This document shows positions 2,242 through 42,127 of a stretch of DNA of 52,686 nucleotides, piece after piece (position 1 is the stretch's first letter; every line of letters starts with the position of its first letter). This DNA comes from a virus (lineage: Duplodnaviria > Caudoviricetes), in the IMG/VR virus record IMGVR_UViG_3300046167_000854, positions 1 to 52,686 of that record; one strand, written 5' to 3'. Below the pieces are notes generated by a model. It was given only the letters and a program-made list of their open reading frames with translations, ran no database searches and was not told the DNA's origin. Position numbers and translations under genes: made by a program.

Positions 2242-5200
2242 TACCTAGACTCCAGAGCCTCAACGCGAGCCTTGAGTTCTTTTATAGCTTCAACAAGCAA
2301 GCCAGTAACCGCGTCATACTCGACCACATAATATTCTTTGTCTTGCTCTCCCGTTTGCAGTGGTAATGCCTGAGACTTAACAGCCTCTGGTAAAACCTCC
2401 ATAATCTCCTGAGCGACAATACCAGCGGCTTTCTCGCCATTCTGATTTCGCACGAAGGTCACGCCGTTAATCTGACCTACCTTGTCGAGTGCGTTAGAAA
2501 TATTAGTAATTTGGCTTTTCAGCCTTCGATCCGAAATCGTAGTCGAATACGCGATGACGTTGCCGTCAAAGTGAGCGTCTTGGCTGTTGTCAATGTACAA
2601 GCCAATGTTGCCGTCGCCGTCCGTAAGTACAACGCGATTGCTTAGCGTGCGAATATCCAAGCCATCTTCATTGCCGCTGTAGGCACCGAGTATCGTGTTC
2701 TTGGACCCGGTTGTAATTGCCGATCCGGCTCCGCTACCTACGCATGTTGATTCGACCGTTGAATATGCCACGCCTAATGCGTTGTGCCCTACGGCTACAT
2801 TTCCATTTTCGGTGTTAATCGCTGATAAAGCGTTATATCCAACTGCTGTATTATCGGCGCCCGAACTAACTGAGTCACCAGCGCCATACCCGATGAGCGT
2901 ATTATCTGACCCACTTGTTACTGAAAGCCCCGATCGCCCTCCAACACAAGTGTTATAGCCACTACCGCTAACAAGGTTTGATGTCAGTGCGTACGCGCCA
3001 ACAGCGGTGTTGTAGCCACCACCCACGGCAGTTCCGTCGCCAGAGTAAGCTCCAACATAAGTATTATTACTGGTTGTCGTGTTCCCCGACCCTGCCTGAT
3101 AGCCAGCCCCAGTATTGTTTTGTCCTATAGTGTTGCTTCTAAATGCTCTATAACCTAGCGCTGTAGCGCGATAAGCGGTTGCCTGTGCGAACATCAGGGA
3201 CTCAAAGCCAAGTGCTGTCGAAGCAAATGCAGGATCGGTATACCCCGACTTTGATCCCACCAGAGTCTGACTGGTTTGGGTTGAACCGAGTCCAGCTTGA
3301 TTGCCTATCGCTACGCTATTAGTGTGAGTTGTGTAGGCACTTCCTGCGTTAGAGCCTATGCAGGTGTTGTAATCACCCGAAGTTAGTTGATTGCCAGCTA
3401 GGTCACCGATTAGAACGTTATCTTGCGCTCCAGACCCAACTGATGCTCCCGCACCTTCGCCAAGCACTACATTATCTAAACCTAGCGGATAATTGCCGTT
3501 TAACTTGATCGTGCCGCTAGCGTCAATCGAGCCTATGTTATGAAGATTATTTCCCCCGTCCATGAAACGGGATCCGTTCATGTAAAGTCCGTTTGAACTT
3601 CTAAAATGTATTTGATTCCAATCTAAATCATCAGTTGAGCCGCCTACATAAAGCGTCTGCGTTCCGTCGTTTACTGGGCGAACATATGAGGCAGTGCGTT
3701 CAAAAGTTAAGCCGAAGCCTTGAAGCCTCAGTCTGGAGCCATCACTGTAGTGCGCTATTACTTCTGCGGCAGTTGAGGCATCTCCTGCTGTTATATTGCC
3801 ACTACTAGTAACAGTAGCTGTTGTAACGTTGCCTGACAGGTGAAGGTCTTTGAAGCGTCCTGATGCATAGCCTAAGTCCACACCACCGTCTACTGCTGAA
3901 CCGCCCGATTCAGGGATTAAAAATATTTGTACCAAACTGAATACCTGCGTGGTCAGCGACTGTTCCTCCGATTCTCAGATTGTTGGTATTAACAACACCA
4001 ATACTACCGACTGGGTCGCCGTCTTTTTGGAAGTCTGCAATCATTCCATCAGAAGTTTTACGATTGAGACGCAATGGATTAATACCATCGCCTGTGCCGA
4101 ATATGTAGCCTTGCGGACGTAACTCTACACCAACATTACTTGTACCTGCGGAACCCTTACCAACAAGCAAGTTGCCGCTAGCATCGAGGAGCATGCGTTG
4201 GTTATAGGAGCCCGCAGAGGTATTTGTGGCAAACGCCATGCCACCAGAGCTTCCAGCGCCTTGATTAGCAATAAGTACAGTTTTCACCACCACCAGATGA
4301 TTTGTTCCAACCAACAGCCAAACCTTGTTTCGTTGTCTAAGGTTGCTGAACCTACGTTTGAAGAAAAATAAGAGTAATCAAAACCGTCTACGTGTAATAA
4401 ACCTTTTGGATCTGCCTCGGCAATTCCAACATTTCCGTTAGAGTCCACTCTGAAGGCTTCTAATGGGTTAGAGCCGTTTGCTCGTGTACTAAACAACAAA
4501 GCCCCAGAAGTATTACCGCTAGTTCCGTTTTCTTTTTCTGCGTGGATAGCCGCAAACATAGTGTTGGAGTCAGACTGTCCAGTGGTTGCTTTACCTGTAA
4601 ATGAAACGCCACCGCCTACACCAGCGACCATAGATGTATCGTCAGAAAGCTGAAGAACAGATTGTGTGTCGCCAAATGTAGACTTAGTGCCTTCTACATG
4701 AAGCACTCTGTTTGGACTGCTAGCAGTACCGATACTTACTAAACCAGTAAACACAGAATTTCCAGCACTATTAATTTCAAGCCTATCCGCTAAAGCCCCA
4801 TTTATAAGCGTTTGGAAGTGAATAGAGCCGTCTTCAGCGCCATTGTCTGTTTGGTCTGCTACGCCATAAATAGTTGCAAACGTATTTGTAGAGCCAACTG
4901 TGTCTTCACCTGTAAACGTAATTTGACCAATCAAGTCACCGTTTGTCCCAGTGCCTGAGTTTCTCCAAAGATTAAGTTGTGGCCCTACTAAGGCATCTGT
5001 ATCTGTAGAGATAAGCGTGACTTGTGCGCTGTTGTTCGCAGTTGTAAAGGTACTTGTGCCAGTACTAGTAATAGCCCCACTCGAGATAGTGCCTGTAACG
5101 TCAATACCTGAGCTACTCGTCGCGAGTCTGACTAAGTTGTTGTGGTATAGAGTTACAGCGCCATCTGCTGCACCTAAAATCATGCTTTCAGTGCCAGCGG

Positions 5201-28384: not shown

Positions 28385-28413
28385 TTGACATGTCGGGATT
28401 CACAACATAATAT
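28385..28413 (+). promoter_or_regulatory. Sigma-70 promoter for the recombination operon
   Basis: TTGACA-N17-TAATAT; an imperfect inverted repeat CCCGGCATGTAAA/TTGACATGTCGGG overlaps the -35. Confidence 0.65.
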
Positions 28414-28445
28414 CCGTGATGAAAGTTTAATCATGGATTGTAAAC

Positions 28446-29138
28446 ATGGAATTGCCACAAACAGTGCAGACTCATATGTCTGCCGATCTGCAAAACGCTC
28501 TTGTCGAGTTTCACAAAAACGAAATTATTGTCCTCAAAGATTCTAGAGGCGGTTACGGCAAGTACGCTACTTATGAAAAGATTCTCGAGAAGGTGCGTCC
28601 CCGGATGCACGAGCAGAAGATTTTCTTTCAGCATATCTCTCACCCCACCGCAGGTGGCGCAGCAATTGAGACAGTGATCTACGGTCACGGCGGCTGCCTC
28701 TCTTCGGGCGTCGTTAGAATACCCGCAAGCAAACAAGACGAGCACAAGTACGGCGGGGCTATAACCTACGCAAAGCGCTACTCGCTGATGCTTGCGCTCG
28801 GGCTGGGTGGTGATGAGGACGTTATAGAGAGGTCGGCTGCGGAAGACTTACCAACAGCTGTTGAGGCAAAGAAGCAAACTGCGGTCAAGAAGGCGCCGGC
28901 TGGAAGAGCCGCACCAAAGAAAGCGAAACCGAATACGGCTGGTTCTGAAGAAGATGCTCAGCGCAGTGAGCTTTGGGCAGCCTCGGGAATGAAAGACGCA
29001 ACCACGCTCGAGACGGCAAAAAAATGCTATGCGCTCTATGAAAAAGGTTGCCGCAACAGAAAGCTAGACCCTCTGCCTGAGGTTTTCGGTCGCTGGACTG
29101 AAAGAAACTTTGATGCGGAGGGCAAAAAAATTGTCTAA
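28446..29138 (+). CDS. erf: ERF-family single-strand annealing protein
   Basis: KYATYEKIL...ETVIYGHGG...YGGAITYAKRYSL. Confidence 0.9.
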   Translation: MELPQTVQTHMSADLQNALVEFHKNEIIVLKDSRGGYGKYATYEKILEKVRPRMHEQKIFFQHISHPTAGGAAIETVIYGHGGCLSSGVVRIPASKQDEHKYGGAITYAKRYSLMLALGLGGDEDVIERSAAEDLPTAVEAKKQTAVKKAPAGRAAPKKAKPNTAGSEEDAQRSELWAASGMKDATTLETAKKCYALYEKGCRNRKLDPLPEVFGRWTERNFDAEGKKIV

Positions 29139-30150
29139 GCAGCAAGACAGCCAATGGCTTGAAGACCGAAAGCCCTATGTCACCGCAACCGGCTGCGCCG
29201 CCCTTGAGGGTAACAACCCATACGAGACCTCCAAGGACTATCTCCGCAAGAAGGTGAGAGACCTTTGCGGCATGCCCAGTGAGTTCGTTATGAGTCCAGC
29301 GGTACAGCACGGCTCTGATATGGAGGAGCTGGCTCGTGATTATTACGAGTATCACACAGGTCAGAATGTAACTGAGACCGGACTAATTGTTCACCCGACT
29401 TACCCCTTCCTTGCCGCAAGTCCCGATGGACTCGTTGGCTTGGATGGATGCATTGAGATTAAGTGTCCTTATCCTAAGTACAACAAGAAGCCCTACAGCG
29501 TTTTCGATCAAAAGAAAAAAATGTACCTGTGGCAGGTGTACGTGCAGATGGAGTGCCTTGACGTAAATTGGTGCGACTTTTTCTGCTACTTAGCCAAGGA
29601 CGAGGTGACGCCCCCGGATTTTTTGCTCGAGCGAGTGCAGCGCGTTGATGGTTGGCTATATGAGCAGGTTCCCGGCAAGCTGCTACCAGAGCCCTCATCC
29701 GGAACTGTGCAGCGAGTTAGCCTGTACGAAGCATGGTACGACCACATGCACATGATTGCCGGTGACGAGGAGCTCAGGCAGCAATTCCTCGAGCCCGCAC
29801 AGGGTGAGGTAGTTACGGTAAAGCCGACACTAGAGATGGAAGAGCTCAGTCAGTTACAGCAAAGGCTTGCCAGCTTGGAGGAGACCCACCGTGATGACCT
29901 TGATGAAATTGCCTCCATCAAAAAGAAATCTGATTCGCTGAAGAAAACCATAGCCGACCATTACAACTGCTCTGTCACAGACGGGCTGGTCACTGTTCAG
30001 CTTGTTAACCGAACCCCAACAATCGACTACCGAAAAGCCTATGAATACCTTGGCGGCGAACAAGCCGTCCTCGACCGGGGTGGCTCGCCAGAGTCATTCC
30101 GACGGGAAAACAACAACCGTCAAATCAACATTAAATATGGAGTTTTGTAA
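29110..30150 (+). CDS. YqaJ/lambda-exonuclease family protein (start may be TTG at 29131)
   Basis: WLEDRK..VTAT...HGSDMEELAR...LAASPDGLV...IEIKCP...YLWQVYVQM. Confidence 0.9.
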   Translation: MMRRAKKLSKQQDSQWLEDRKPYVTATGCAALEGNNPYETSKDYLRKKVRDLCGMPSEFVMSPAVQHGSDMEELARDYYEYHTGQNVTETGLIVHPTYPFLAASPDGLVGLDGCIEIKCPYPKYNKKPYSVFDQKKKMYLWQVYVQMECLDVNWCDFFCYLAKDEVTPPDFLLERVQRVDGWLYEQVPGKLLPEPSSGTVQRVSLYEAWYDHMHMIAGDEELRQQFLEPAQGEVVTVKPTLEMEELSQLQQRLASLEETHRDDLDEIASIKKKSDSLKKTIADHYNCSVTDGLVTVQLVNRTPTIDYRKAYEYLGGEQAVLDRGGSPESFRRENNNRQINIKYGVL

Positions 30151-30485
30151 TGAGCGAGAATTTTAAATCAAACGAGGGCAAGGCTTGGGCTGCCAAGCCT
30201 GAAGCTAAGCAGAGAGAGATGGAGCGACTCATGCAGTACGACTGGTTCCAAGGCAAGTCTGATCAAGACAAGCAGCAGATGATCCCTATCTACAGCGGGG
30301 TCATCAACAAGGTCAATATTCCGCAAGGGTCTGATGCCTACATCGATATCTGTAAGGAGCTAAGTCAAGCCGGGCAACCGCAGCTTTCTATCAGAATCAA
30401 TGAAAAAAAGGTGGCGACTCTGCAGACACCTGCACCCGCGCCTCAGCAAGAATCAGACCCATTTGGCGATCCGTTCTCAATTTAA
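30150..30485 (+). CDS. Putative ssDNA-binding / recombination accessory protein
   Basis: Follows erf and exo; acidic-aromatic tail QQESDPFGDPFSI. Confidence 0.55.
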   Translation: MSENFKSNEGKAWAAKPEAKQREMERLMQYDWFQGKSDQDKQQMIPIYSGVINKVNIPQGSDAYIDICKELSQAGQPQLSIRINEKKVATLQTPAPAPQQESDPFGDPFSI

Positions 30486-30497
30486 GGACATTAGTGT

Positions 30498-30893
30498 ATG
30501 GGACTGCGAATCACCAGAGCTGTAAACACGGTGGTTTTTGGGGGCTACGATTTGGATGAAACAAATCCAAACGCATCCTTCGACCACCGGATATGGATTC
30601 GCGGCGTCAGAAATTATCGAGACCGCCAAGAGGGGATCATAAACATCAAATCGGAATTGGGCGTTGAAGAGCACGTTATTCAGGTTGGAGATGATCCTCT
30701 GGAGCTTGCTCCCGACTTGGCGATTGAGATGGTTGGCGTCCGCGACAGGAGTGCCCAAGCCGAACCGTACTGCGAGGCTTGCGGCAGAGGTCATTCATTC
30801 ACGGATCGACAAACCCCTCAAGCAGAGCTGTCGCTGATCGCGCCACGCTCGTATCGATTAGTACGCGACAACGCACGGAGAAAGAAACGATGA
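30498..30893 (+). CDS. CsrA/RsmA-like protein, apparently tandem-fused, with a CxxC insert
   Basis: N-terminus GLRITRAVNTVVFGG resembles CsrA MLILTRRVGETLMIG; C-terminal half VGDDPLELAPDLAIEMVGV...QAELSLIAPRSYRLVRD resembles VGETLMIGDEVTVTVLGV..QVRIGVNAPKEVSVHRE. Confidence 0.6.
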   Translation: MGLRITRAVNTVVFGGYDLDETNPNASFDHRIWIRGVRNYRDRQEGIINIKSELGVEEHVIQVGDDPLELAPDLAIEMVGVRDRSAQAEPYCEACGRGHSFTDRQTPQAELSLIAPRSYRLVRDNARRKKR

Positions 30894-31126
30894 GCGAAGA
30901 ACAGCAGATCCAGGTTGGCGGCAATATTTACAACGTCTCCGATCTTAGCCAGCCCTGCAAGGAGCTTTTAGTCAGAGCGCAGAACGGTCAGAACGCACTG
31001 GCTGCTATGAGCACCACACTAGAGCTTGCTCGAATTGGCTTGGAAGTTATCAATCTAGACTTGAAAAAATTACTGCCCACCGAAGACTACGAGACCGGAG
31101 TCGCCGAAGGTGAGTTGATTCAATAA
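30890..31126 (+). CDS. Hypothetical protein (DUF6447-like)
   Basis: MSEEQQIQVGGNIYNVSDLSQPCKELL; CACGGAGA RBS. Confidence 0.7.
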   Translation: MSEEQQIQVGGNIYNVSDLSQPCKELLVRAQNGQNALAAMSTTLELARIGLEVINLDLKKLLPTEDYETGVAEGELIQ

Positions 31127-31280
31127 TCCCATCCTTGGGCTACTGTGGCGGGTTTCCATGTGTTTTCCCAGATCACAGGGAGGTTTGAGGCTCCTCTAGT
31201 AGCAACGCCTCACTAAATTATCGGTTGGCTCACGTTACGAGCTGGACCCTTAGCGCTTGCCCCTCTCGGGGGGCTTTTTT
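31127..31280 (+). ncRNA. Candidate sRNA with anti-GGA (anti-RBS) loops
   Basis: Four hairpins plus a terminator in a non-coding gap; loops TCCT, TTTCCATGTGTTTT and TCCTCTAGTAGCAAC; G-U pairs favour the plus strand. Confidence 0.5.
31259..31280 (+). terminator. Rho-independent terminator
   Basis: GCCCCT-CTCG-GGGGGC-TTTTTT. Confidence 0.85.
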
Positions 31281-31298
31281 AAGTCGGATTAAAAAAGG

Positions 31299-31328
31299 TT
31301 GAAGCATGCAGAAGGAACATCATATTAT
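31299..31328 (+). promoter_or_regulatory. Probable integrase promoter
   Basis: TTGAAG-N18-TATTAT after an A-tract, downstream of the terminator. Confidence 0.5.
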
Positions 31329-31371
31329 CGTTAAAGCTTCGGGCGCATCTCCGCAAACATGGAGAGACAAC

Positions 31372-32262
31372 ATGAAGCAATGGACGTTTAAAGAACTTGC
31401 AGGTGTTTATCTCAAGAGCAAGAGCTCTCGAGGCAAGGAAAGAAACGAAGTCGCGCACAGAGTCATTGGTGAGATGGGAGCCCGGTGGGGTGATCGACCA
31501 ATCGATGAGCTCAAGAAAGCTGAAATCTATATGATGCAGCAGGAGCTAATCGAGGATCGCGGTCTCGCACGAGCAACCGTCAATTGTTACCTGACTTATC
31601 TAAGAGCGATGCTGAATTTCGGGGTGGAGGAACTGGATCTTCAGTTTGTCCCGCCAAAAATCAAGCTGCTCGAGGAGAACAAGCGGACCAACTACTTAGA
31701 GCCAGACCAGATACAACGGCTTCTGAATAACTTGGATCCACTGCGCTCTGACATGGCGAAGTTTGCAGTCCACACCGGGATGCGAAACAACAATGTTAGA
31801 GCTTTGCGCTGGCGGTACGTTTCCCGCGATTTCACCGAGATCGTGATACCGGCACACGAGATGAAGAACAACAAGCCGTTGTGTATTCCTCTCGGTCGAA
31901 CGCTTCAAGCATTACTGAAGCGGCGTCACAATGAGAAGCTGGATATAGAGCATCGATACCCACGGCTGGGTGAAGTTGCTTATGTTTTTTTCCAGCAGTG
32001 CGGTAACCCGCTATCGGTAAAGGCGGTGTGCAACAAGACTTGGAGGAAGGCGGTTAAGAGTGCAGGTCTACCGGAAGGGACAACCTTTCACACCCTTCGC
32101 CACACGTTCGCCAGTCTGCACATAAAGAATGGCACTCAAGCTATTGAGCTAAAGGAGCTTGGTAACTGGAGTAGCTTGAACTCGATTGCCCGGTATACCC
32201 ACTTGGGAACTGAGCATAAGAGGACTGTGGTGAACAGGTTGGAAGGAGTACTCCAACCTTAA
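31372..32262 (+). CDS. int: Tyrosine integrase
   Basis: TGMR, K, FHTLRHTFAS, LGNW, RYTH catalytic motifs; RBS ACATGGAGAG before ATG 31372. Confidence 0.95.
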   Translation: MKQWTFKELAGVYLKSKSSRGKERNEVAHRVIGEMGARWGDRPIDELKKAEIYMMQQELIEDRGLARATVNCYLTYLRAMLNFGVEELDLQFVPPKIKLLEENKRTNYLEPDQIQRLLNNLDPLRSDMAKFAVHTGMRNNNVRALRWRYVSRDFTEIVIPAHEMKNNKPLCIPLGRTLQALLKRRHNEKLDIEHRYPRLGEVAYVFFQQCGNPLSVKAVCNKTWRKAVKSAGLPEGTTFHTLRHTFASLHIKNGTQAIELKELGNWSSLNSIARYTHLGTEHKRTVVNRLEGVLQP

Positions 32263-32305
32263 AAAAAAGAGGGATCCCCTGTTCATTGAACACCTCGGAT
32301 CCCTT
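32261..32305 (-). terminator. Long hairpin with a minus-strand U-tract right after int
   Basis: Plus strand A8-GAGGGATCC-CC-TGTTCATTGAACA-CCTC-GGATCCCTT. Confidence 0.5.
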
Positions 32306-32368: not shown

Positions 32369-32416
32369 TGGAGCGGGAAACGAGATTCGAACTCGCGACC
32401 TCAACCTTGGCAAGGT
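32369..32416 (-). other. attP core: 3' part of a host tRNA-Gly(GCC)
   Basis: Minus strand ACCTTGCCAAGGTTGAGGTCGCGAGTTCGAATCTCGTTTCCCGCTCCA: anticodon loop, T-arm, acceptor 3' strand and CCA, with no 5' half; about 100 bp from int. Confidence 0.92.
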
Positions 32417-32449
32417 GGAATCCCTTGTTATTTCTGGCTTAGCCAAGCA

Positions 32450-33445: not shown

Positions 33446-36400
33446 CTACGGTTTGATCTCATTCCAGCGCTTGTTGTACCGGTCATAAATCAACTCTTGT
33501 TGGTCGCTTATCTCATCAAGCCTCCTATAGCGCAGGACGGCTTCTACGTTTTCGGCTTGCTCTACTTTCTTCTTTTGTTGTGAGAGCTTTCTGAGAGCCT
33601 TGTTTGCTTGCTTATGGAAGATCTCAAACTGGTAAAGCTTGGGTCCAAACTCCTCACGGAGAGCTGCCTTGCCGGTGCTATTTGCGTCACTGTACTCATC
33701 CCAGTACTGACCCCACTCATTACGGGCGTCATAGAAAGTGACCCGGTCCTTATATGCACTAGGTCGAGGGAAGAACGAGCGAATGATGGGTATATCATCC
33801 AGCTTTAAATCATCGGGCTTATCGTTTCGCCACTTGTGGGCAGTGTCTGCAGCGTCATTAAAGAAGCGCCCCATGCCACCAAACATAAAGTTTAAAGCGT
33901 GCTGTACGCGATCCGGGTTAATCTCGAGCGTGCCGTCTCGGTAATCGCTACCGCCAAAAACCTGAGCGATAGTCTTTGTCGTTGATTCGATCCAGTCTGC
34001 CGTGCCGCGGCGAGTTTTCTGTGATGCCGGGGTCGGAATGAGGAACGAGTTCTGAGGCACCTCGATGTTTTCACCGAAGTAATTAATGTTCGCAGCCTGT
34101 TCCAGTAGGAAGTCACCAACATCAGGGGACGCCAAGAAGCCGAGTTTCAGTACTGCCGACTCAACTGCATCTCGATCTTCTACCGCATGAATACCCTGAG
34201 GGTTGAAGTGTCGGTCTATCGAGCCAAAGAGATCCACGGCAACCGTATCGGGATCCTTTAGGTTCATCGACAGCTCTGCACCTAAGCGCCCGAGGTCGTC
34301 ATAGAACCCCCAGCCATAAGATTTGGGTATGGCAACGCCTTGCTCGTCGCTCATGCGGAACAGCATGCCGGTCTTCTGAGCGTACTCATTGTAATCGAGG
34401 TAGGTAGACTCACCGTCGTCATCCTCGCCAGACATCCATATATTCATGAGCGTCCGAGCGAAACCAAACATCACCAGACCTGCAATCAATGCGCGCGCCT
34501 TGGTTATCTTTTCTCCATCTCGACCAGACTTGAGAGCCGGTCCAGCTGTATTTATGTTGCCCTGCCAAGCCGCATTAAAGAAGAGGAAGAAGGTATCCAT
34601 GCTTCCACTAAGCTCGCCTTTGCGGTTGAAGTTAACAGTAAGATCTTTAGCAATCGTAGCTGCGGTTGTTCTTTCAACACCGGCTTTACGTGACTCGACA
34701 TAGGTGGAGAATCTGGTCACGTTCTCCATGACTTGGTTAAAGTCTTCGACGTATTTGCCAACGAACTTGAGGGTCTTCATGACGTTACCCTCGTTCATCA
34801 GTCTTTTTATTCTGCGACCCTGCTCGTCAAGGTTCTTGGTGTAAGACAGACCCGTGGGGGCACCATCATCCTTGTAGTCCTGAACATACTGGGCAAGCTC
34901 TCTCGCCTTGTCAGTCTCCGGATCTTTTCCACGAGAATCACGCCACAACGCCTTGTACGCAGATGGGTATCCATAGATAACATTCTTAATTATCTTCTTA
35001 CCCTTGAGCCTTCCCGCCCGAGAGTCCTGCTCTGCTAAGAGGTAGCCCACCCCGGTCTGAACGTCACGTATTGGGTTTACTGCACCCCAGGTTGGGTTGT
35101 AGTTGATGTACATGTTGCGCCGGAAATTCTGAAACATTCGCAGCCCTTGCATTACCTGATTGAGGGACTCGATGTCGGAATTGAATATGCCGATACTGGC
35201 GGACTGCAGCTGCTTGTTAAGCTCTAGGTCTCGTATCTCAATAAAGTGATCCTGACCGTTACGCTTGACCTGTATGTATCGCTTAACACCGGGGGCGTCT
35301 GGGCGCTCCTCGTTAGCCATTACGCTTTGGCTCTTACGCACACTGATGTCGTCGGGTGGGGACTGGAATGGGTATTGCGTTGGTGGGTATACGCTCCATT
35401 GGCTGGACTTGAATTTAGTTACAAGCTTCAACAGGCGTTGAGCGATTACATTTTTTTCCGCCCGGACAATTTTTGTTTCGCCATCGATGAAAGAGTTGAG
35501 CAAGGGGTTCTCAGGCATCGTGATACGACCCTTCGCCTTGAAGGATTCCTTGCCCTTAATGCTAAAGCCCTTTGAGCCATTGCCGGTAACCATGTCACCG
35601 TCTACCTCTGTCGCAGCAAATCCTTTAAGGGGAACATAAAACTCATAACGATCCTGCCAGTCCTCGCGAGTCTCGTCATCAAGCAGACCTTTATCGACCA
35701 TGTTCTGACGCATAGCCGTCAACATCTCGTATGTCTTGTCAGCAATTTCCTCGAGGGCGTCGTACTTGTCTTCAAGCTTGGCTGTAGCAACTACGGATAC
35801 AGATTGCTCATCGGTCATTCCCGAGCCGGTCTCCTGAAACTTTAGGGGCTCATTCTCGAGGCGATCTAGTCGCTCAACGATTGACTCAGACGGGCGATCT
35901 AGTGCCCCCATGGAGTCCTCTAGAGCCTTGTTAAGCTGCTCTATTTGCTGGGCCCGCATCTCTCTCTCGCGCTCTGCGATCACCCGGTTACGTTCCGGGG
36001 CATGCTTTGCCAGCAAGTAGAGACCGACTTGGTTTGTGTCTAGTTCAGCCGCCTTCATCAAAGCCGCTATTGGCTTGATGTAGCTATCTTCAAATTTATC
36101 GATCTGGTTCTGCACCTTAGAGTGCATCAGGTTCTCAGCGTCGTGTGCTGATATTGATGCTGGCAATCGCTCGAGCCCCACCGATGCAGCCATGCGATTC
36201 TCTAACTCCTTCAGCTTCTCTATCCTGTCGCCAAGAGCCTTTCGAAGTGACGCAGGGAATGCCCGGCTTAGGCGCTGATCGAGATCCAAGGTAACGAGGT
36301 ACTCGTCATCAAGGTTAAAGCTAATGTCGTGGGAGTCTGCCTGCTCTTCTCTACGGTGGTAACGGGCTTTGTTTATGTCACCACGTACAGCGTTCTTTGC

Positions 36401-39400
36401 CAGAACGAGAGGACCGACCTGAATCACTTCTTCCGCAGAAATGATGGGGTCCATGGTGCGACGATCATAGAACCCCTCTCGTCGGCGTGGGTCCATGCCA
36501 ACCTGTGTCCACTGAGGATCATTGAGAGCCGCTACTGCGTCGTTGTAGTTCTGTTCTGGAGTCTTGTTAACAAAGCTACCCATGATTCGCGCATAGGTAA
36601 CCTTGCTCATATCGCCTTCCATAATCTTTATGGAGGTGTTCGGAGCAGCCTTGAACAGCGCGCCAGCTACCCGGGCTGTACTGCGATGAGACTTAGTTGT
36701 CTTCTCGTGAATCGTTGGAACCCAGACATTGTGTCGGTCGTATGCAGGTATATCTAAACGCAAACCAACCTCAGCACCCTCGTTGATAGCCACGTCAATC
36801 AGGTCTTTCTGGTTTGCTTGCAGTGCGCCACGCATCTCTTCTACGGACGCAGGATCAGGCACTGAGGTGTACGGCTTAACGGTAGACCCAACCACGCGAA
36901 GATACTCATCGATCTCAATCTCACCGCGACGTAGCTTCTTATATGCGCTAGCGACCTTCGGGATAGTCCTGTTGCTAACTGGAACGATAGGACCGTTCTC
37001 ACCCATGGTGTCGTTGATGTATCGACCGATAGATGACTTGAGACCGGGTGATGGATCGAAGCCGTCAATGTCATCGTCGAACACCGCAAGCATCACGTCA
37101 TCGATGCGATCAAACCCGAGGTAGTCGTCACGCTCAAGCGCCCTTAGCAGGCGACGGAACGTTGGTGGAATGATTAGCTCGTCGATATCGATATCCGCAA
37201 CAGATTCTCCGGGCTCAATACCAGAGCTCTCGAATTCTCTTACGGCTGTTTCTCGTGCGACGGCACGAAGGTCCTCGTCTCGGAATGCTGCCGGCTTAGG
37301 ATTGGTCCGGCGTATGAAGCGAGCTTTGCTTACTTCTGGCTGGGTTTCTGGCTGCTCGTCATAGACTCGGTTGAGTTCGCGGTTTTGCGTCCATCCGTAT
37401 CTTTCGCTGAACTCGTCTTCAACTTGCCGTACTCTCGGCTGAAGTTGAGTGACGAGATCCTTAACCCTTCCTTGTAAATCGGGTCGTCCGCTGAGGCGGT
37501 TTTCCAAATACCCTTCGCCATTGGTGTTCTCCGTCCAATCATTTTCGATGAGACCGTTATCTGAAACGAATCGTTTCGCCGTAAAGCTCTCATCGTTATC
37601 GAATTCTATCTGAGTAAGCGCATTGTTGATAGCTTTCTCGAAGTCCGTTTCGCTTTTCTTCCGGGCATAGTTCACAAGCCCGGAGAACGAATTACCGTCG
37701 GCATCGGAAAAATTAATAAACCGAACGCCCGTCCCGGTTGATATAGGCTCAATGCCATACTCCGACAACAGCCGGCTAATCTCCTGAGTCTCTCTTTTCG
37801 AGAACGGTCTGCCGATATCTACGTCAGCCCCATTCTGGGACGCACGGGTATTGGAGTCTTTGAAGAATGGTCGGTGATATCCGATGGCGTCTTGCTTGAG
37901 CAGGATGCCCTTGACTGCTGAGTAAGCGTGAATCAGATCCTCGGCATCCTTTGAAATGACGCCGTCCTCTTTGACTCTGTACTGCCGAGGGACTACTACT
38001 TCGTTTTGTGAGACCGGATCGTTTCGACCTTCCCATGATCCAAGCCCAACGGATACTCCCATTTGGAGCATTCCAAGCTCCCTGGCAACAATGTCGTATC
38101 CATCATCGTCAAGGAATGCCTTATCCATCTGGTGATGGAATTCAATGATCTCACCTTCGGTGGCGTCAAAGATCTCAGGGAAATGCCCTGACTTGGTTGA
38201 CGGTATTGACTCGACACTAATCTGTGCCAGCTTGTTCAGTGCTGCATCTTTGTAATCGAACTTCGCAGATTCCATCTCAGCTTCAGTCGGTTCATATGCC
38301 AAAGCTTTTTTGACCCAAAGCTGACCATGCGCTTGCTCGGAAGCAAGATCCTTGAACTGCCTAATCTTCTTGCCTTTACTGTCTGAGACAAACTTGAAGT
38401 AGCCCTTCAGCTGAGACAGCGCATCAACAGCCTTCTTCAATGGCTTGGATTCCATTCGAGCTTTGATCTCAACCCAGATGGCAGCCTGTACTTGCTGGGG
38501 CTCCCAGCCGAGCTCATTGGCAATACGCAGAGTTTCGTTCTCTACGAAGTCATAATTTAAATCAGTAGGGTTATCGCTGGGATAGCCAAAGGCTCGCATC
38601 ATCCATATGTCTGTGGTGACGCCTTGCTCCAAGTCGTCGTCGATGACACGCAGCAAATTGTTTTCAAAGTTGCTTGTTTTGCGTCCCGAGAAGCCCTTAT
38701 CGCTGTTGAAAACATCCTCCATCTTCTTGCCCATGGAGGTGGGGAATATGCCGCTTTCAATGGGCTTGCCGTTCTTCCACTGATAGTAAGCCTGAACAGC
38801 AAATTCAAAGTTCGTATCCACCCCTGTCTGAGGTGAGGTGATTGCAATAGCGGCAACGAGTTTACGGGCGTCTTCTTTGTTTCCGCCTGTAATCTCTAGA
38901 ATGTTTTTGCCACTACGCTCATACCAGAAACGACCGTACTCACCTTTCTTCGCTATCTCTTTTACTGCCTGTCGCAGTCGGCGTAGCTTGTCTGGGGTGT
39001 TAATTCCTCGCGGGGCACCAACGTACTTGCCAGACTTTTGTCGTCTAGGAGGGGTGTATTCAGTCGGAACCCGGATAAATCTACTGTTATTAGGGTTGGG
39101 GAAGTAGCGCTCGCCGTCGGGCGTCAGCTCAGACAGGATATCTCCGTCTTCCTCCATCTGATCGAGTAGGTCTCGGAAGTTTCCTTCCTCCTGTCCCACC
39201 TGCTCGGACAGTTGTGCGGCAGATATGCCGTCTTCGGAGATGCTCTGTATTAGGGTGTCACGCAGCTCCTGACGTGGCGCCGGCTCTGCTTCAACAGCGG
39301 GGGCATTACGCTCGAGCTTCTCGTTATGAAGCTGGGTAATTATTGCCTCAGTTTCTTTTCTATTGGAGGCAAGTATTCCATTGGAATATGGATGAGTTGG

Positions 39401-42127
39401 ATCAAGGTTAAACTCGTCATCGTGCTGGGGGTCTAAAACCCAGCCTCTTGCAACCGGATCTCTAGATATTTGATAAACATCACCATCCGCCATGGTGACG
39501 TTCATTGTGCCGTCTAAATCAAAATCCTCCGCACGTTTAACGCTTTGGATTTCTACTGGTAATACTTGTCCTGCAGTGTCCCCAGCTTCAGGTTCGGGCG
39601 TTCCGCCCACGCTTTCACCGGCTTGTTCCTCGACAACGCTAGGTCCGCCAGTTCCTCCAGCTCCCCCTTCGTCTTGAACTTGAATGCTTCCTGACTCGGC
39701 AGGTGCCCGAACGTCTCGTAGTACTCCTGCACCTTCGGAGGTAGCGGCTTCTTGGTTAGCTTCCTGATTCCCATACAAACCTCTTACGTCGTTAGTTACT
39801 AACTGCTCTGCCGGAACAGGGTTAGCGAATATATCCTCGATTATACTATGCCCAAACGGCAAACTCTTTTGTATCGATCCCTCATTAGCCACATAGGACG
39901 CTCCAAGCTGAGCAAACAGCTCTTCTCTCGCGCTATCTAGTACCCGCTGAATCTTCTCCGGGTCACCGTTTTGGTTGGCTATGTTGTCGTAGAGAGAGTC
40001 GAGGGGATACGCGAAGAAGCCAGAGCCCTCTGCATCAGACTCCCATAGGTCAAAGATTTCCTCGATGGCTCTGCCCATGCTGATATCAGGCTGACCGTCA
40101 CCATCAATGTCTTCGACCTTCATCTTAAAGTGGTCGAGGGATTCTGAGTACCCGTTCTTAAAGTCTGCAGCATGCATCACTTCATGCGCGGTGTTAAACC
40201 GGTTTCGGCGGGCTCGCTGCTCGTCATCTGCGCCCTCTAGCAAGTGATCAAACCGCATACCGATAACGCTAGATCGATCTAAAAATGCTGCGTCGGCGTC
40301 GTGAGGAATATCCTCTGTCGAGAGTATATGAGTCCCCTTAATAAGATCACGGAACTCACTGGGCATGCCTCGCATTGCAAGGTCAAGATAGATCGAAGCC
40401 GCTTCCTCAGTGGCTGGATTAGCCGTTGGGTCTGTGCTTCCTACGAAGTCAGTTAAGCCCGGAAGCTGAACGGTTCTGCCGTCCTCTGTGCCCATAAATA
40501 CAGGAGCCTGAGAAGGCGTAATGTTGAAATTTATATCCGCTTCAGTAACGCCATCAGATACGAACTCACCTGCGCCCATCGCTTTAGGGATTGGTCCGCG
40601 GTTAGCAGCATCGTGAAAAGCCTCAATCTTCTGGCTCAGAGTTTCCGGGGTGCTGACCATAAAGATCTCACCGCTGAACTCATCTGTCTGCTGAGTTGCC
40701 TTGGGTACTGCTCGTCGCGTGTTGCGGCTCGTAGATGCATCAATCGCGTTTAATGCGGACGTACGGGCTGAACCTTCTAGCTTCTCCGCCGCCGATCGAA
40801 GGGTATTCTCAGTTGCTAGGTCATCGTCTATGCCGTCAACAATGAGCTGCTTTTGCAGCGGCACGGGCATGTTGCCCCAGTAAAGCTTTGGGTCTGCAGG
40901 GGGCTGATCATATCCCTCGAGCAAGACGTCCATGCTAGAGTCCTGACCGGGCTGTATTGTTGTCTCTTGTGCAGTGAGCGACACCGTACCGGGTGTTGGC
41001 TCCGGGGTCGGGCCCGCTTCTGTGTCGATAGTCATATCGCCCTGAGTCAGAGCGACCACCTTTCGACGAGCCTCGGGCATGCGGTTGATACGTGCCTGCT
41101 CAGCCTCTTCACTGAAAGGCGATCCGCCCTCGGGGTCTGGCTGTTCTGGGCGTTTACCGCCAAACTTTGTGGCTTGGATAGCGCCACCACCAACTAAGCC
41201 AGCTAGGCTTCCTGAAGCAAACGCATTGATGTACATAGACTTGGAGCGCTCGTCCGCAACAATATCCATAAACTCACGTTGCTGCTCTACGGGCAGGCTT
41301 TCTTCCGCCCATGCGACCGCAGCTCTGCCGAGAAACTCTTGAGTAGCCTCTGTAAATCCTTCTACGCCAGCAGCCTTGATCGCCTCACGGCTCACTGCCA
41401 TGACGTAGTCTTTACTCATAAAGACTCGCTCAGCGATATCGTCGTTAAACTGCTCTAACCCGTCTGAGCCAAACATCCGCTTAAACGCACGCTGTGGCAC
41501 ACCAAACTGATCAAGTGCTCCCTGAGCCACGCCGACAGCGAGAGCTTTGCCGGGTGCCTCAATGCCTGTTTCATCATAGATTTCAGCAAAGTTGGAGGCT
41601 GTGTTCTGGGCTCCGCTGTACGCGACAAAACCAGCCGCAGCATCGTAGTTCTTTTGGACAGCCTTTTCTGCAAGTCGCTTGCCGATCGTATCGGCTTCCT
41701 GCTCGAGCTTGCTTTTTAGTAGTTTCTTGGCGCCAGCTTTGGCTGCAAACCCACCAACACCACCGCCGATCACATCAGGCACAAGAGTGCCGAGCGTGTA
41801 ACCAGCCCAATCAGTGAAGTCTCCGAATGAATCTATCTCCTCAACAGAGGTGACATTCGCGCCAACGTTAGCGGCGTCCTGCATTTTCTGACGGTAGTAA
41901 GCAAGACCAGAATCAACCCACTCATCTTTTCCGATGGCGCTGCCGACAGTTGCCTTTAAGGCACCACCAAGACCTTGGGTCTGATCTATCCCCGCATCAA
42001 AGCCCTTCCCAAACTGAGTATCCGACAGCACTCCGCCATCGGTGAGCTTGTCAGCGAGGTCCTCGGTCGGTTGTTCAGGAAGGTTTGGGGAGAATGGGCT
42101 TATGCGCCCTATACTTATACCAGCCAT
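33446..42127 (-). CDS. Giant internal virion / ejection polyvalent protein (zincin HExxH, HhH-glycosylase-like domain, C-terminal LPD38-like region)
   Basis: 2893 aa; AHEVMHA; WY...AITSPQ...GRKTSNF..NL...VTTDIWMMR...QVQAAIW; AKDLTVNFNRKG...FFNAAWQG...IPKSYG. Confidence 0.8.
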   Translation of the reverse strand: MAGISIGRISPFSPNLPEQPTEDLADKLTDGGVLSDTQFGKGFDAGIDQTQGLGGALKATVGSAIGKDEWVDSGLAYYRQKMQDAANVGANVTSVEEIDSFGDFTDWAGYTLGTLVPDVIGGGVGGFAAKAGAKKLLKSKLEQEADTIGKRLAEKAVQKNYDAAAGFVAYSGAQNTASNFAEIYDETGIEAPGKALAVGVAQGALDQFGVPQRAFKRMFGSDGLEQFNDDIAERVFMSKDYVMAVSREAIKAAGVEGFTEATQEFLGRAAVAWAEESLPVEQQREFMDIVADERSKSMYINAFASGSLAGLVGGGAIQATKFGGKRPEQPDPEGGSPFSEEAEQARINRMPEARRKVVALTQGDMTIDTEAGPTPEPTPGTVSLTAQETTIQPGQDSSMDVLLEGYDQPPADPKLYWGNMPVPLQKQLIVDGIDDDLATENTLRSAAEKLEGSARTSALNAIDASTSRNTRRAVPKATQQTDEFSGEIFMVSTPETLSQKIEAFHDAANRGPIPKAMGAGEFVSDGVTEADINFNITPSQAPVFMGTEDGRTVQLPGLTDFVGSTDPTANPATEEAASIYLDLAMRGMPSEFRDLIKGTHILSTEDIPHDADAAFLDRSSVIGMRFDHLLEGADDEQRARRNRFNTAHEVMHAADFKNGYSESLDHFKMKVEDIDGDGQPDISMGRAIEEIFDLWESDAEGSGFFAYPLDSLYDNIANQNGDPEKIQRVLDSAREELFAQLGASYVANEGSIQKSLPFGHSIIEDIFANPVPAEQLVTNDVRGLYGNQEANQEAATSEGAGVLRDVRAPAESGSIQVQDEGGAGGTGGPSVVEEQAGESVGGTPEPEAGDTAGQVLPVEIQSVKRAEDFDLDGTMNVTMADGDVYQISRDPVARGWVLDPQHDDEFNLDPTHPYSNGILASNRKETEAIITQLHNEKLERNAPAVEAEPAPRQELRDTLIQSISEDGISAAQLSEQVGQEEGNFRDLLDQMEEDGDILSELTPDGERYFPNPNNSRFIRVPTEYTPPRRQKSGKYVGAPRGINTPDKLRRLRQAVKEIAKKGEYGRFWYERSGKNILEITGGNKEDARKLVAAIAITSPQTGVDTNFEFAVQAYYQWKNGKPIESGIFPTSMGKKMEDVFNSDKGFSGRKTSNFENNLLRVIDDDLEQGVTTDIWMMRAFGYPSDNPTDLNYDFVENETLRIANELGWEPQQVQAAIWVEIKARMESKPLKKAVDALSQLKGYFKFVSDSKGKKIRQFKDLASEQAHGQLWVKKALAYEPTEAEMESAKFDYKDAALNKLAQISVESIPSTKSGHFPEIFDATEGEIIEFHHQMDKAFLDDDGYDIVARELGMLQMGVSVGLGSWEGRNDPVSQNEVVVPRQYRVKEDGVISKDAEDLIHAYSAVKGILLKQDAIGYHRPFFKDSNTRASQNGADVDIGRPFSKRETQEISRLLSEYGIEPISTGTGVRFINFSDADGNSFSGLVNYARKKSETDFEKAINNALTQIEFDNDESFTAKRFVSDNGLIENDWTENTNGEGYLENRLSGRPDLQGRVKDLVTQLQPRVRQVEDEFSERYGWTQNRELNRVYDEQPETQPEVSKARFIRRTNPKPAAFRDEDLRAVARETAVREFESSGIEPGESVADIDIDELIIPPTFRRLLRALERDDYLGFDRIDDVMLAVFDDDIDGFDPSPGLKSSIGRYINDTMGENGPIVPVSNRTIPKVASAYKKLRRGEIEIDEYLRVVGSTVKPYTSVPDPASVEEMRGALQANQKDLIDVAINEGAEVGLRLDIPAYDRHNVWVPTIHEKTTKSHRSTARVAGALFKAAPNTSIKIMEGDMSKVTYARIMGSFVNKTPEQNYNDAVAALNDPQWTQVGMDPRRREGFYDRRTMDPIISAEEVIQVGPLVLAKNAVRGDINKARYHRREEQADSHDISFNLDDEYLVTLDLDQRLSRAFPASLRKALGDRIEKLKELENRMAASVGLERLPASISAHDAENLMHSKVQNQIDKFEDSYIKPIAALMKAAELDTNQVGLYLLAKHAPERNRVIAEREREMRAQQIEQLNKALEDSMGALDRPSESIVERLDRLENEPLKFQETGSGMTDEQSVSVVATAKLEDKYDALEEIADKTYEMLTAMRQNMVDKGLLDDETREDWQDRYEFYVPLKGFAATEVDGDMVTGNGSKGFSIKGKESFKAKGRITMPENPLLNSFIDGETKIVRAEKNVIAQRLLKLVTKFKSSQWSVYPPTQYPFQSPPDDISVRKSQSVMANEERPDAPGVKRYIQVKRNGQDHFIEIRDLELNKQLQSASIGIFNSDIESLNQVMQGLRMFQNFRRNMYINYNPTWGAVNPIRDVQTGVGYLLAEQDSRAGRLKGKKIIKNVIYGYPSAYKALWRDSRGKDPETDKARELAQYVQDYKDDGAPTGLSYTKNLDEQGRRIKRLMNEGNVMKTLKFVGKYVEDFNQVMENVTRFSTYVESRKAGVERTTAATIAKDLTVNFNRKGELSGSMDTFFLFFNAAWQGNINTAGPALKSGRDGEKITKARALIAGLVMFGFARTLMNIWMSGEDDDGESTYLDYNEYAQKTGMLFRMSDEQGVAIPKSYGWGFYDDLGRLGAELSMNLKDPDTVAVDLFGSIDRHFNPQGIHAVEDRDAVESAVLKLGFLASPDVGDFLLEQAANINYFGENIEVPQNSFLIPTPASQKTRRGTADWIESTTKTIAQVFGGSDYRDGTLEINPDRVQHALNFMFGGMGRFFNDAADTAHKWRNDKPDDLKLDDIPIIRSFFPRPSAYKDRVTFYDARNEWGQYWDEYSDANSTGKAALREEFGPKLYQFEIFHKQANKALRKLSQQKKKVEQAENVEAVLRYRRLDEISDQQELIYDRYNKRWNEIKP

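Follow-up and report, generated by a model that had tools for sequence, protein, structure and literature searches.

The window analysed here is the whole of IMG/VR virus record IMGVR_UViG_3300046167_000854 (Duplodnaviria; Caudoviricetes), 52,686 bases with a completeness rating of 100%, and is the genome of a temperate marine phage. Between its recombination genes and its integrase gene it encodes a 131-residue protein that sequence profiles place as a remote, highly diverged and phage-specific member of the CsrA superfamily. CsrA is the model of a small dimer controlling hundreds of mRNAs, in which bridging and decoy capture depend on two RNA-binding faces. In the phage protein, a single chain may make up the complete two-sheet sandwich for which CsrA needs two interlocked chains, with one GGA pocket on what would be a GGA-binding regulator of translation; we put the probability of this reading at roughly one half. 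Canonical csrA genes in phages are already known. What is new here is a CsrA relative of double length, probably made of one chain and carrying a loop with a CxxC motif.

A conserved phage family related to CsrA

The gene is real, conserved and under purifying selection, as its homologue counts and its low ratio of nonsynonymous to synonymous substitution rates (dN/dS, 0.07-0.16 against seven related phage loci) establish. Twenty close homologues, nearly all of exactly 131 amino acids (aa), and 34 homologue representatives at 50% identity clustering were found, and a profile search with the family returned 31 proteins. The source records are all unnamed or labelled 'hypothetical protein' and several stem from ocean surveys; the family is small, unnamed and comes from uncultured marine phages. 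The diverse family alignment used below (A4) holds 40 sequences of 115-143 aa. Two database 'homologues', P0019 and P0020 (101 and 112 aa), were excluded from alignments A2-A4. Both begin in an overlapping alternative frame and then pass into the CsrA-like frame (compare the +1-frame open reading frame (ORF) at 4059-4364 of the related locus L001), which suggests gene calls with a frameshift or broken copies of the gene.

An independent CsrA profile was started from the Escherichia coli csrA region and drawn from CsrA genes, which 57 of the 81 genomes sampled from one phylum proved to contain, giving 44 aligned non-identical sequences. Compared with this alignment by hhalign, A4 matched at residues 62-127 to CsrA positions 7-48 with a probability of 95.3% (expect value, E, 2.3e-8; score 46.4), against a maximum score of 16.9 for 60 column-shuffled controls and 16.5 for the reversed one. 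Residues 2-20 matched CsrA 1-19 (probability 83.7%, E 8e-6, score 23.4), and residues 1-63 scored 23.6, a value reached by none of 150 shuffles; shuffle maxima across the hhalign controls lay between 16.9 and 19.8. Because both matches exceed the shuffles, the likeness to CsrA resides in two separate segments of the protein, an N-terminal one with beta1-beta2 and a C-terminal one with beta2-beta5 and the helix.

An earlier note on this DNA, made from the letters alone, had proposed a CsrA-like beta1 at the N-terminus and beta2-beta5 at the C-terminus of a protein about twice as long as CsrA. Both proposals stand. The motifs quoted for them are in place (LRITR at residues 3-7, EMVGV at 77-81 and QAELSLIAPRSYRLVR at 108-123, with YCEACGRGH at 91-99), and the 131 aa compare with 61-100 aa for a CsrA monomer (PMC13443453; papers are cited here for the available parts of their text). 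The profiles add a refinement, in that the N-terminal piece holds a beta2-like strand besides beta1. Residues 8-20 and 62-75 are each aligned to CsrA 7-19, and two such beta2-like segments are what a chain filling both sheets would need.

Among the 40 members scanned singly, 16 match the Pfam CsrA family (PF02599) at E <= 10, mostly over C-terminal stretches at profile positions 29-50, and the best of them reaches 24.7 bits (E 2.4e-5). Each of the other Pfam families is matched by at most two of the 40 (25 listed of 27 families, E <= 10).

Conservation at the RNA-contact positions of CsrA

When family residues are mapped onto CsrA through the hhalign alignments and their conservation is counted in A4, the best conserved positions of the family turn out to be those with which CsrA holds the GGA bases. 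Towards the N-terminus, L3 and R7, equivalent to CsrA Leu2 and Arg6, are each kept in 38 of 38 ungapped rows, and I5 (Leu4) is I, L or M in 38/38. Towards the C-terminus, A115 and P116 match the Ala36-Pro37 hinge (37/40 and 39/40), Y119 takes the place of Val40 (Y in 32/40), L121 that of Val42 (I or L in 36/40) and N125 that of Glu46 (N, D or E in 40/40), and R123, on Arg44, is the only residue that never varies. For RsmN, a CsrA-family protein of Pseudomonas aeruginosa, it is described that Leu4 and Leu6 stack on the two guanines, that the beta5 backbone reads the guanine Watson-Crick edges, that a conserved salt bridge links Arg8 to Glu64, and that RNA binding needs Arg44/Arg62 (Arg62 of RsmN corresponding to Arg44), which is called essential (PMC3791407). 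Binding of GGA-type RNA is expected of the phage protein mainly because selection acts on the CsrA RNA pocket.

A second GGA face was not found in the protein: there is no second beta1, and V60 lies at the place of the second Arg44 equivalent. With the beta1/beta5 contact residues kept and their second set absent, the alignments agree with the one intact RNA-binding face that had been suggested before. As far as sequence and model indicate, the protein most likely binds GGA RNA through this single beta1/beta5 pocket and would adjust phage or host translation early in infection.

A possible single chain in place of two

An AlphaFold model made from close homologues only was poor, with a predicted local distance difference test score (pLDDT) of 66. 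The AlphaFold2 single-chain model made from the diverse alignment has a mean pLDDT of 87.9 and a predicted template modelling score (pTM) of 0.75. It contains nine strands (residues 3-7, 12-16, 30-39, 44-52, 55-62, 68-71, 74-86, 104-114 and 120-123) and two helices, a short one at 24-27 and a C-terminal one at 124-130; the middle part, residues 21-61, forms a block with a pLDDT of 93-96. In the CsrA dimer, the sheet order is beta5A-beta2B-beta3B-beta4B-beta1A, twice (PMC3791407), and the nine strands of the model thread onto this order with no connection broken.

Threaded in this way, the first five strands (3-7, 12-16, 30-39, 44-52 and 55-62) would take the role of subunit A, and strands 68-71, 74-86, 104-114 and 120-123 together with helix 124-130 would take that of subunit B without its beta1. 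At the meeting point of beta5A and beta2B, strands 55-62 and 68-71 would make a simple hairpin, and the middle residues 21-61 would stand in for the strands of the partner subunit. The N-terminal beta1 (L3, I5, R7) would then lie beside the C-terminal beta5 (Y119, L121, R123) and make up the single GGA pocket, the second pocket having been lost. A protein of this build would bind one GGA site per molecule, either in phage or host mRNAs, at their ribosome-binding regions, or on host Csr/Rsm decoy RNAs. It would modulate translation at an early stage of infection or around the time when integration is decided. The CxxC loop would be an accessory decoration of the beta3-beta4 turn, outside the core mechanism.

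Structure comparisons of the model with VIA-align laid RsmN (4kji_A) over residues 2..127, with 53 of 64 residues aligned, a root-mean-square deviation of 2.3, 23% identity and a Z of 4.0, which is in the noise band of the tool; RsmA (1vpz_A) reached Z 3.0 on the poorer model. In BFVD the best match extended over the full length and was A0A6J5RUQ1, a 114-aa 'Carbon storage regulator' of an uncultured Caudovirales phage (E 3.9e-4, template modelling scores 0.57/0.66, 124 columns). The next matches were several unnamed phage proteins of 85-118 aa, and from these BFVD matches it follows that long CsrA-like proteins exist in other phages. The best ESM Atlas scores were 0.78-0.79 for the whole protein, and residues 60-131 gave no usable match there. 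Foldseek found no match in the PDB at E <= 0.001 for either model.

The points that speak for the fused pseudo-dimer put forward in the earlier note are the two beta2-like segments, the confident single-chain model, the alignment of RsmN across both ends of the model, and a precedent described below. The part of that proposal that fared less well is the duplication itself, which is not demonstrated, since residues 21-61 carry no CsrA signal and no match is seen between the two halves; in the hhalign comparison with CsrA, residues 21-63 stayed at noise level. A two-copy complex prediction gave no answer (score 0.01 in both runs, made without controls) and speaks neither for nor against dimerisation.

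Several results weigh against the one-chain reading. The strand pairing of the threading is inferred, not read from the model coordinates. An internal-repeat test of the N half against the C half found no match (E 0.31), and residues 28-66 scored 6.4 against CsrA in hhalign, which 129 of 150 shuffles equalled. The window protein itself had no CsrA match at E <= 1 in a Pfam scan and no match in PHROGs and NCBIfam scans, and all member matches to PF02599 fall below its curated 27 bits. When the family profile was run against PDB sequences, nothing appeared below E 0.3 and no CsrA was among the hits; of the profile check that had been proposed, the family-against-CsrA comparison (95.3%) thus came out in favour of the likeness and the PDB search did not. 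The proposed comparison of a predicted model with CsrA was likewise divided. The model is confident in its nine strands and RsmN spans nearly all of it, but the CsrA-family chains, half the size of the model, attain only Z 3.0-4.0 (ranks 50 and 43), inside the noise band. Top VIA-align matches are generic beta-sandwiches, namely the CcsBA periplasmic domain (Z 9.1 over 85 residues, and 7.4), class II fusion proteins (Z up to 7.6), an S-layer domain (Z 6.8) and CcmF (Z 6.4). The isoelectric point ranges from 4.9 to 9.7 across the family. No cluster of ANGGA motifs lies near the gene, and five small ones, of four motifs each, occur elsewhere in the phage, which has 141 such motifs on the + strand and 207 on the - strand, about 206 being expected.

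Alternative explanations

The alternative that survives best is a CsrA homologue that is still homodimeric and has two RNA sites, like RsmN/RsmF, in which both the CxxC loop and the beta insert, 50 residues placed between beta2 and beta3, serve as surface decoration or for re-routing and do not take the place of the partner subunit. All characterised CsrA-family proteins are dimers in the accounts given by PMC3791407 and PMC13443453, and the insertion of RsmN likewise lies between beta2 and beta3 (PMC3791407). The absence of CsrA-like sequence from the middle part fits this explanation as well, and the single CxxC of each chain would suit a site shared by two chains. We nevertheless hold it to be unlikely. 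The single-chain model keeps its confidence across the insert, the chain has two beta2-like segments, and its nine strands are nearly the ten of a CsrA dimer. A homodimer of such chains would have to arrange 18 strands in a way for which no precedent is known.

A second alternative, which we consider decidedly unlikely, retains the CsrA-derived fold and gives it another job, as a DNA-binding recombination directionality factor or as a mimic titrating the partners of host CsrA. Excisionase genes often sit just upstream of the integrase gene. The CsrA-like gene lies within a DNA-recombination operon and directly precedes the integrase gene in the related viral contig L064; it is one small gene away in the window and in L009, a contig of the metagenome-assembled genome (MAG) 'uncultured Gammaproteobacteria bacterium'. 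Gene position is nevertheless no argument for DNA binding, because canonical phage csrA is similarly placed, among early DNA-metabolism genes. A terminator-like hairpin parts the operon from int, and the strongest constraint falls on the CsrA RNA-contact positions and not on a new surface.

It is very improbable that the CsrA likeness arose by convergence or chance in an unrelated beta-sandwich, for instance an FHA-like or a CcsBA/CcmF periplasmic domain: the solved-structure ranking above, five FHA-domain entries (middling scores of Z 3.9-5.3, covering model residues 1..79-124) and a collinear weak FHA profile alignment of 81 columns point that way, but the CsrA signal is independent in two segments and puts the invariant Arg on Arg44, no Pfam family other than CsrA is matched member-wide, and the top match among viral structures bears the name carbon storage regulator. 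FHA (PF00498) was rejected by sequence, as its hhalign comparison with a 38-row alignment is at noise (probability 0.8%, E 0.067, score 15.1) and FHA is absent among the 25 listed of 27 Pfam families. In that noise-level alignment, over residues 1-88 (30498-30750), R7 falls on the Arg of 'GR', [ST]27-x-x-H30 on 'SxxH' and N49 on the Asn of 'NG'; several family members read G-R at positions 16-17.

The CxxC loop

The CxxC stretch had been assigned to the beta3-beta4 turn, and hhalign finds an insertion at exactly that place, with residues 83-84 and 86-106 standing between beta3 and beta4 of CsrA. The loop is without secondary structure in the model, where residues 81-110 have a pLDDT of 73-80. 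CxxC is present in 32 of the 40 family members, the other eight having a short turn or a mutated one, and because of this absence the loop is accessory to the fold. Of the 32 members with CxxC, 21 have exactly two Cys. A zinc site of the classical four-ligand kind within one chain is ruled out, since there is a single CxxC and mostly two Cys. Among candidate partners, H99 is kept in 11/40 members, and H30 is kept in seven of the eight members that lack CxxC; H30 is not a partner ligand, because it persists where the motif is absent and shows no co-variation with it. A zinc ribbon or knuckle, with four ligands and usually two CxxC/CxxH knuckles, was rejected on the one CxxC per chain, and the zinc-ribbon matches in Pfam are single-member ones with E 0.01-0.5.

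The suggestion of a metal or redox sensor is weakened by these counts. The loop may be a site shared by two chains, a redox-active pair or a structural turn. At its most speculative, and we regard this as a long shot, the protein would be a monovalent CsrA that forms no mixed dimers with host CsrA and is poorly captured by decoys, and the CxxC loops of two chains may share a metal or a disulfide, so that a redox or metal switch would pass it between one-sited and two-sited binding.

Comparison with characterised CsrA-type systems

The phage protein resembles CsrA/RsmA/RsmE, the homodimeric GGA-binding translational regulators, by profile homology over beta1-beta2 and over beta2-beta5 with the helix, by the N-terminal L-x-[IL]-T-R placed just after the initiator residues, by the conserved A-P hinge and Arg44 equivalent, and by an equal order of secondary structure in the aligned parts. 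It differs from them in about 41 extra residues of its 131, present as three more strands in a chain that has nine, in the 23-residue CxxC loop of its beta3-beta4 turn and, probably, in having one RNA site per chain instead of two per dimer. The family fails PF02599 both on the curated score (27 bits) and on subunit size and strand count.

RsmN/RsmF of P. aeruginosa (4kji) is the best structural match of the phage protein within the CsrA family, at a Z in the noise band. The extra residues of the phage protein, which lie between the N-terminal beta2-like strand and the CsrA-like beta3, may correspond to the insert that RsmN has between beta2 and beta3. In RsmN, an RNA site is formed within one chain, by its beta1 and beta5 (PMC3791407). 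The insert of RsmN is a helix of 16 residues, the protein has no C-terminal helix and it is a dimer of two folded units, whereas the phage insert is beta-rich (30-39, 44-52, 55-62) and long enough for the strands of a partner, and the C-terminal helix is kept.

A precedent for a CsrA-like sandwich in one chain is the C-terminal domain of the YqeH GTPase (3ec1), in which two repeats of a single chain form a CsrA-dimer-like beta-sandwich, related by segment swapping (PMC2954204). The relation of YqeH to CsrA is described there as structural only, whereas the phage protein has CsrA homology in sequence. 3ec1 is not among the best 50 structure matches listed, which leaves room for such a likeness. 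The viral match A0A6J5RUQ1 shares 10% identity with the phage protein in the structural alignment.

Of 50,697 phage records, 88 carry canonical csrA genes, whose products have the normal length and are 45-100% identical to E. coli CsrA; a published count gives 30 csrA-positive phages among 2517 (PMC7366521). These phage and plasmid genes (the RsmM type in P. aeruginosa phages, and csrA of Vibrio phages) likewise belong to temperate or marine phages and lie among early genes, as in the marine Vibrio phages. In the early region of Vibrio phage VvAW1 (L067 3403-4213), a DEDD exonuclease gene shares its end with a canonical csrA of 70 aa, an order that echoes the exonuclease followed by the CsrA-like gene in the window. 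Among the sampled genomes (G001-G081), 24 of the 57 CsrA-positive ones have two or three CsrA-family matches, some of them adjacent, as in G010 (C1 2124369 and 2125084). The literature search returned no paper describing a single-chain, pseudo-dimeric or CxxC-bearing CsrA; the supplementary tables of phage CsrA homologues in PMC7366521 might hold long forms.

Possible significance

If the one-chain reading is true, a single chain with one face separates binding from bridging in CsrA-type regulation and shows a route from an interlocked dimer to a monomer. It would also be a new means for temperate phages to rewire host translation, and, on the most speculative view given above, a monovalent CsrA would let such a phage impose CsrA-type repression regardless of the state of the host Csr/Rsm system. 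The assignment would provide a name and a testable function for about 50 unnamed clusters of marine phage proteins. The 114-aa viral match hints that long CsrA-like proteins are commoner in phages than annotation shows.

Genomic context and distribution

The features of the CsrA-like gene and of its neighbours are collected in Table 1. The early genes of the phage form divergent operons, with a replication initiator and primase/helicase genes leftward and the recombination operon that contains the CsrA-like gene rightward. The stop of the CsrA-like gene overlaps the start of the next gene (ATGA, 30890-30893). A strong terminator-like hairpin (31259-31274) separates the operon from int, and for this reason the integrase probably needs read-through or its own promoter.

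Table 1. Coordinates of the CsrA-like gene, its parts and the neighbouring features in the window
Feature	Position	Strand	Basis
Coding sequence of the 131-aa CsrA-like protein	30498..30893	+	ORF list and sequence; ATG start
Shine-Dalgarno-like AAGGA, 10 nt 5' of the start, overlapping the stop codon of the upstream gene	30484..30488	+	Sequence
CsrA-like beta1 (LRITR) and beta2-like strand, residues 2-20	30501..30557	+	hhalign; model strands 3-7, 12-16
Beta-rich middle, residues 21-61	30558..30680	+	AlphaFold2 secondary structure; no CsrA sequence signal
CsrA-like beta2-beta5 and start of C-terminal helix, residues 62-127	30681..30878	+	hhalign; Pfam stretches
Insertion in the beta3-beta4 turn, residues 83-106, with YCEACGRGH (residues 91-99; nt 30768-30794)	30744..30815	+	Gap in CsrA alignment
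R123 codon, only invariant family residue (R 40/40), equivalent to CsrA Arg44	30864..30866	+	hhalign, A4
Erf-type annealing protein	28446-29138	+	Pfam ERF 7.6e-11, PHROGs match
YqeJ/RecE-like (YqaJ) exonuclease	29110-30150	+	Pfam YqaJ 2e-27, PHROGs match
111-aa protein, no family match	30150-30485	+	
78-aa ORF, start overlapping the stop of the CsrA-like gene	30890..31126	+	ORF list
Terminator-like hairpin (GCCCCTCTCGGGGGGC then T6), closing the operon before int	31259..31284	+	Consensus scan
Tyrosine integrase	31306..32262	+	Pfam Phage_integrase 1.8e-25; phrog_1 2.9e-50

The order Erf, exonuclease, small protein, CsrA-like gene and integrase is kept in four related loci, in which the protein has 82-88% (L001 and L005), 42% (L009) and 30% (L064) identity to that of the window. 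The 78-aa ORF, which had no Pfam, PHROGs or PDB match, has a homologue at the same place in L001 and L009 and is absent in L064. The 111-aa protein upstream gave no match in a PDB search; it has an acidic tail (...DPFGDPFSI), and its 31%-identical counterpart in L009 (3885-4211) ends in DDDIPF. Such acidic tips occur on single-strand DNA-binding proteins, and given its place after Erf and the exonuclease, the 111-aa protein may be a small partner of that type.

A search of genome contigs yielded one MAG contig, L009. The MAG also has two canonical CsrA genes, which means that at least one host possesses a Csr system. From the class of this MAG, 400 species-genomes were sampled and scored, and only the MAG itself carried the gene; a second genome hit was dropped for its three in-frame stops. 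When the 50,697 phage records were searched by tblastn with the window protein and two other family members, P0050 and P0054, no true relative came up, and a hit in Aeromonas phage ST4 (E 0.5) was dropped, as it lies in a tail-region hypothetical protein. A related-locus search with P0029 found none. Loci L065 and L066, obtained with P0054, match the CxxC stretch only, inside unrelated genes, and were dropped.

Three sequencing runs contain 0.05-0.11 of the sampled words. On 28400-32300 they yielded nine short contigs, which fall in erf, the exonuclease gene and int; 30498-30893 has none, and the runs are silent on transcription of the CsrA-like gene.

Just 3' of the integrase gene, at 32379-32426 on the - strand, there is a weak match to the end of transfer-messenger RNA (tmRNA; Rfam RF00023, 12.6 bits, E 0.023), and ARAGORN found no whole tRNA or tmRNA in the window. 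This match is probably the attP core and would point to integration in the host ssrA gene. On the same strand, an ORF of 2893 aa (33446-42127) matches only PHROGs of unknown function (phrog_14770, 2.2e-117). Because it adjoins tail and internal-virion-protein genes, it probably encodes a giant virion protein.

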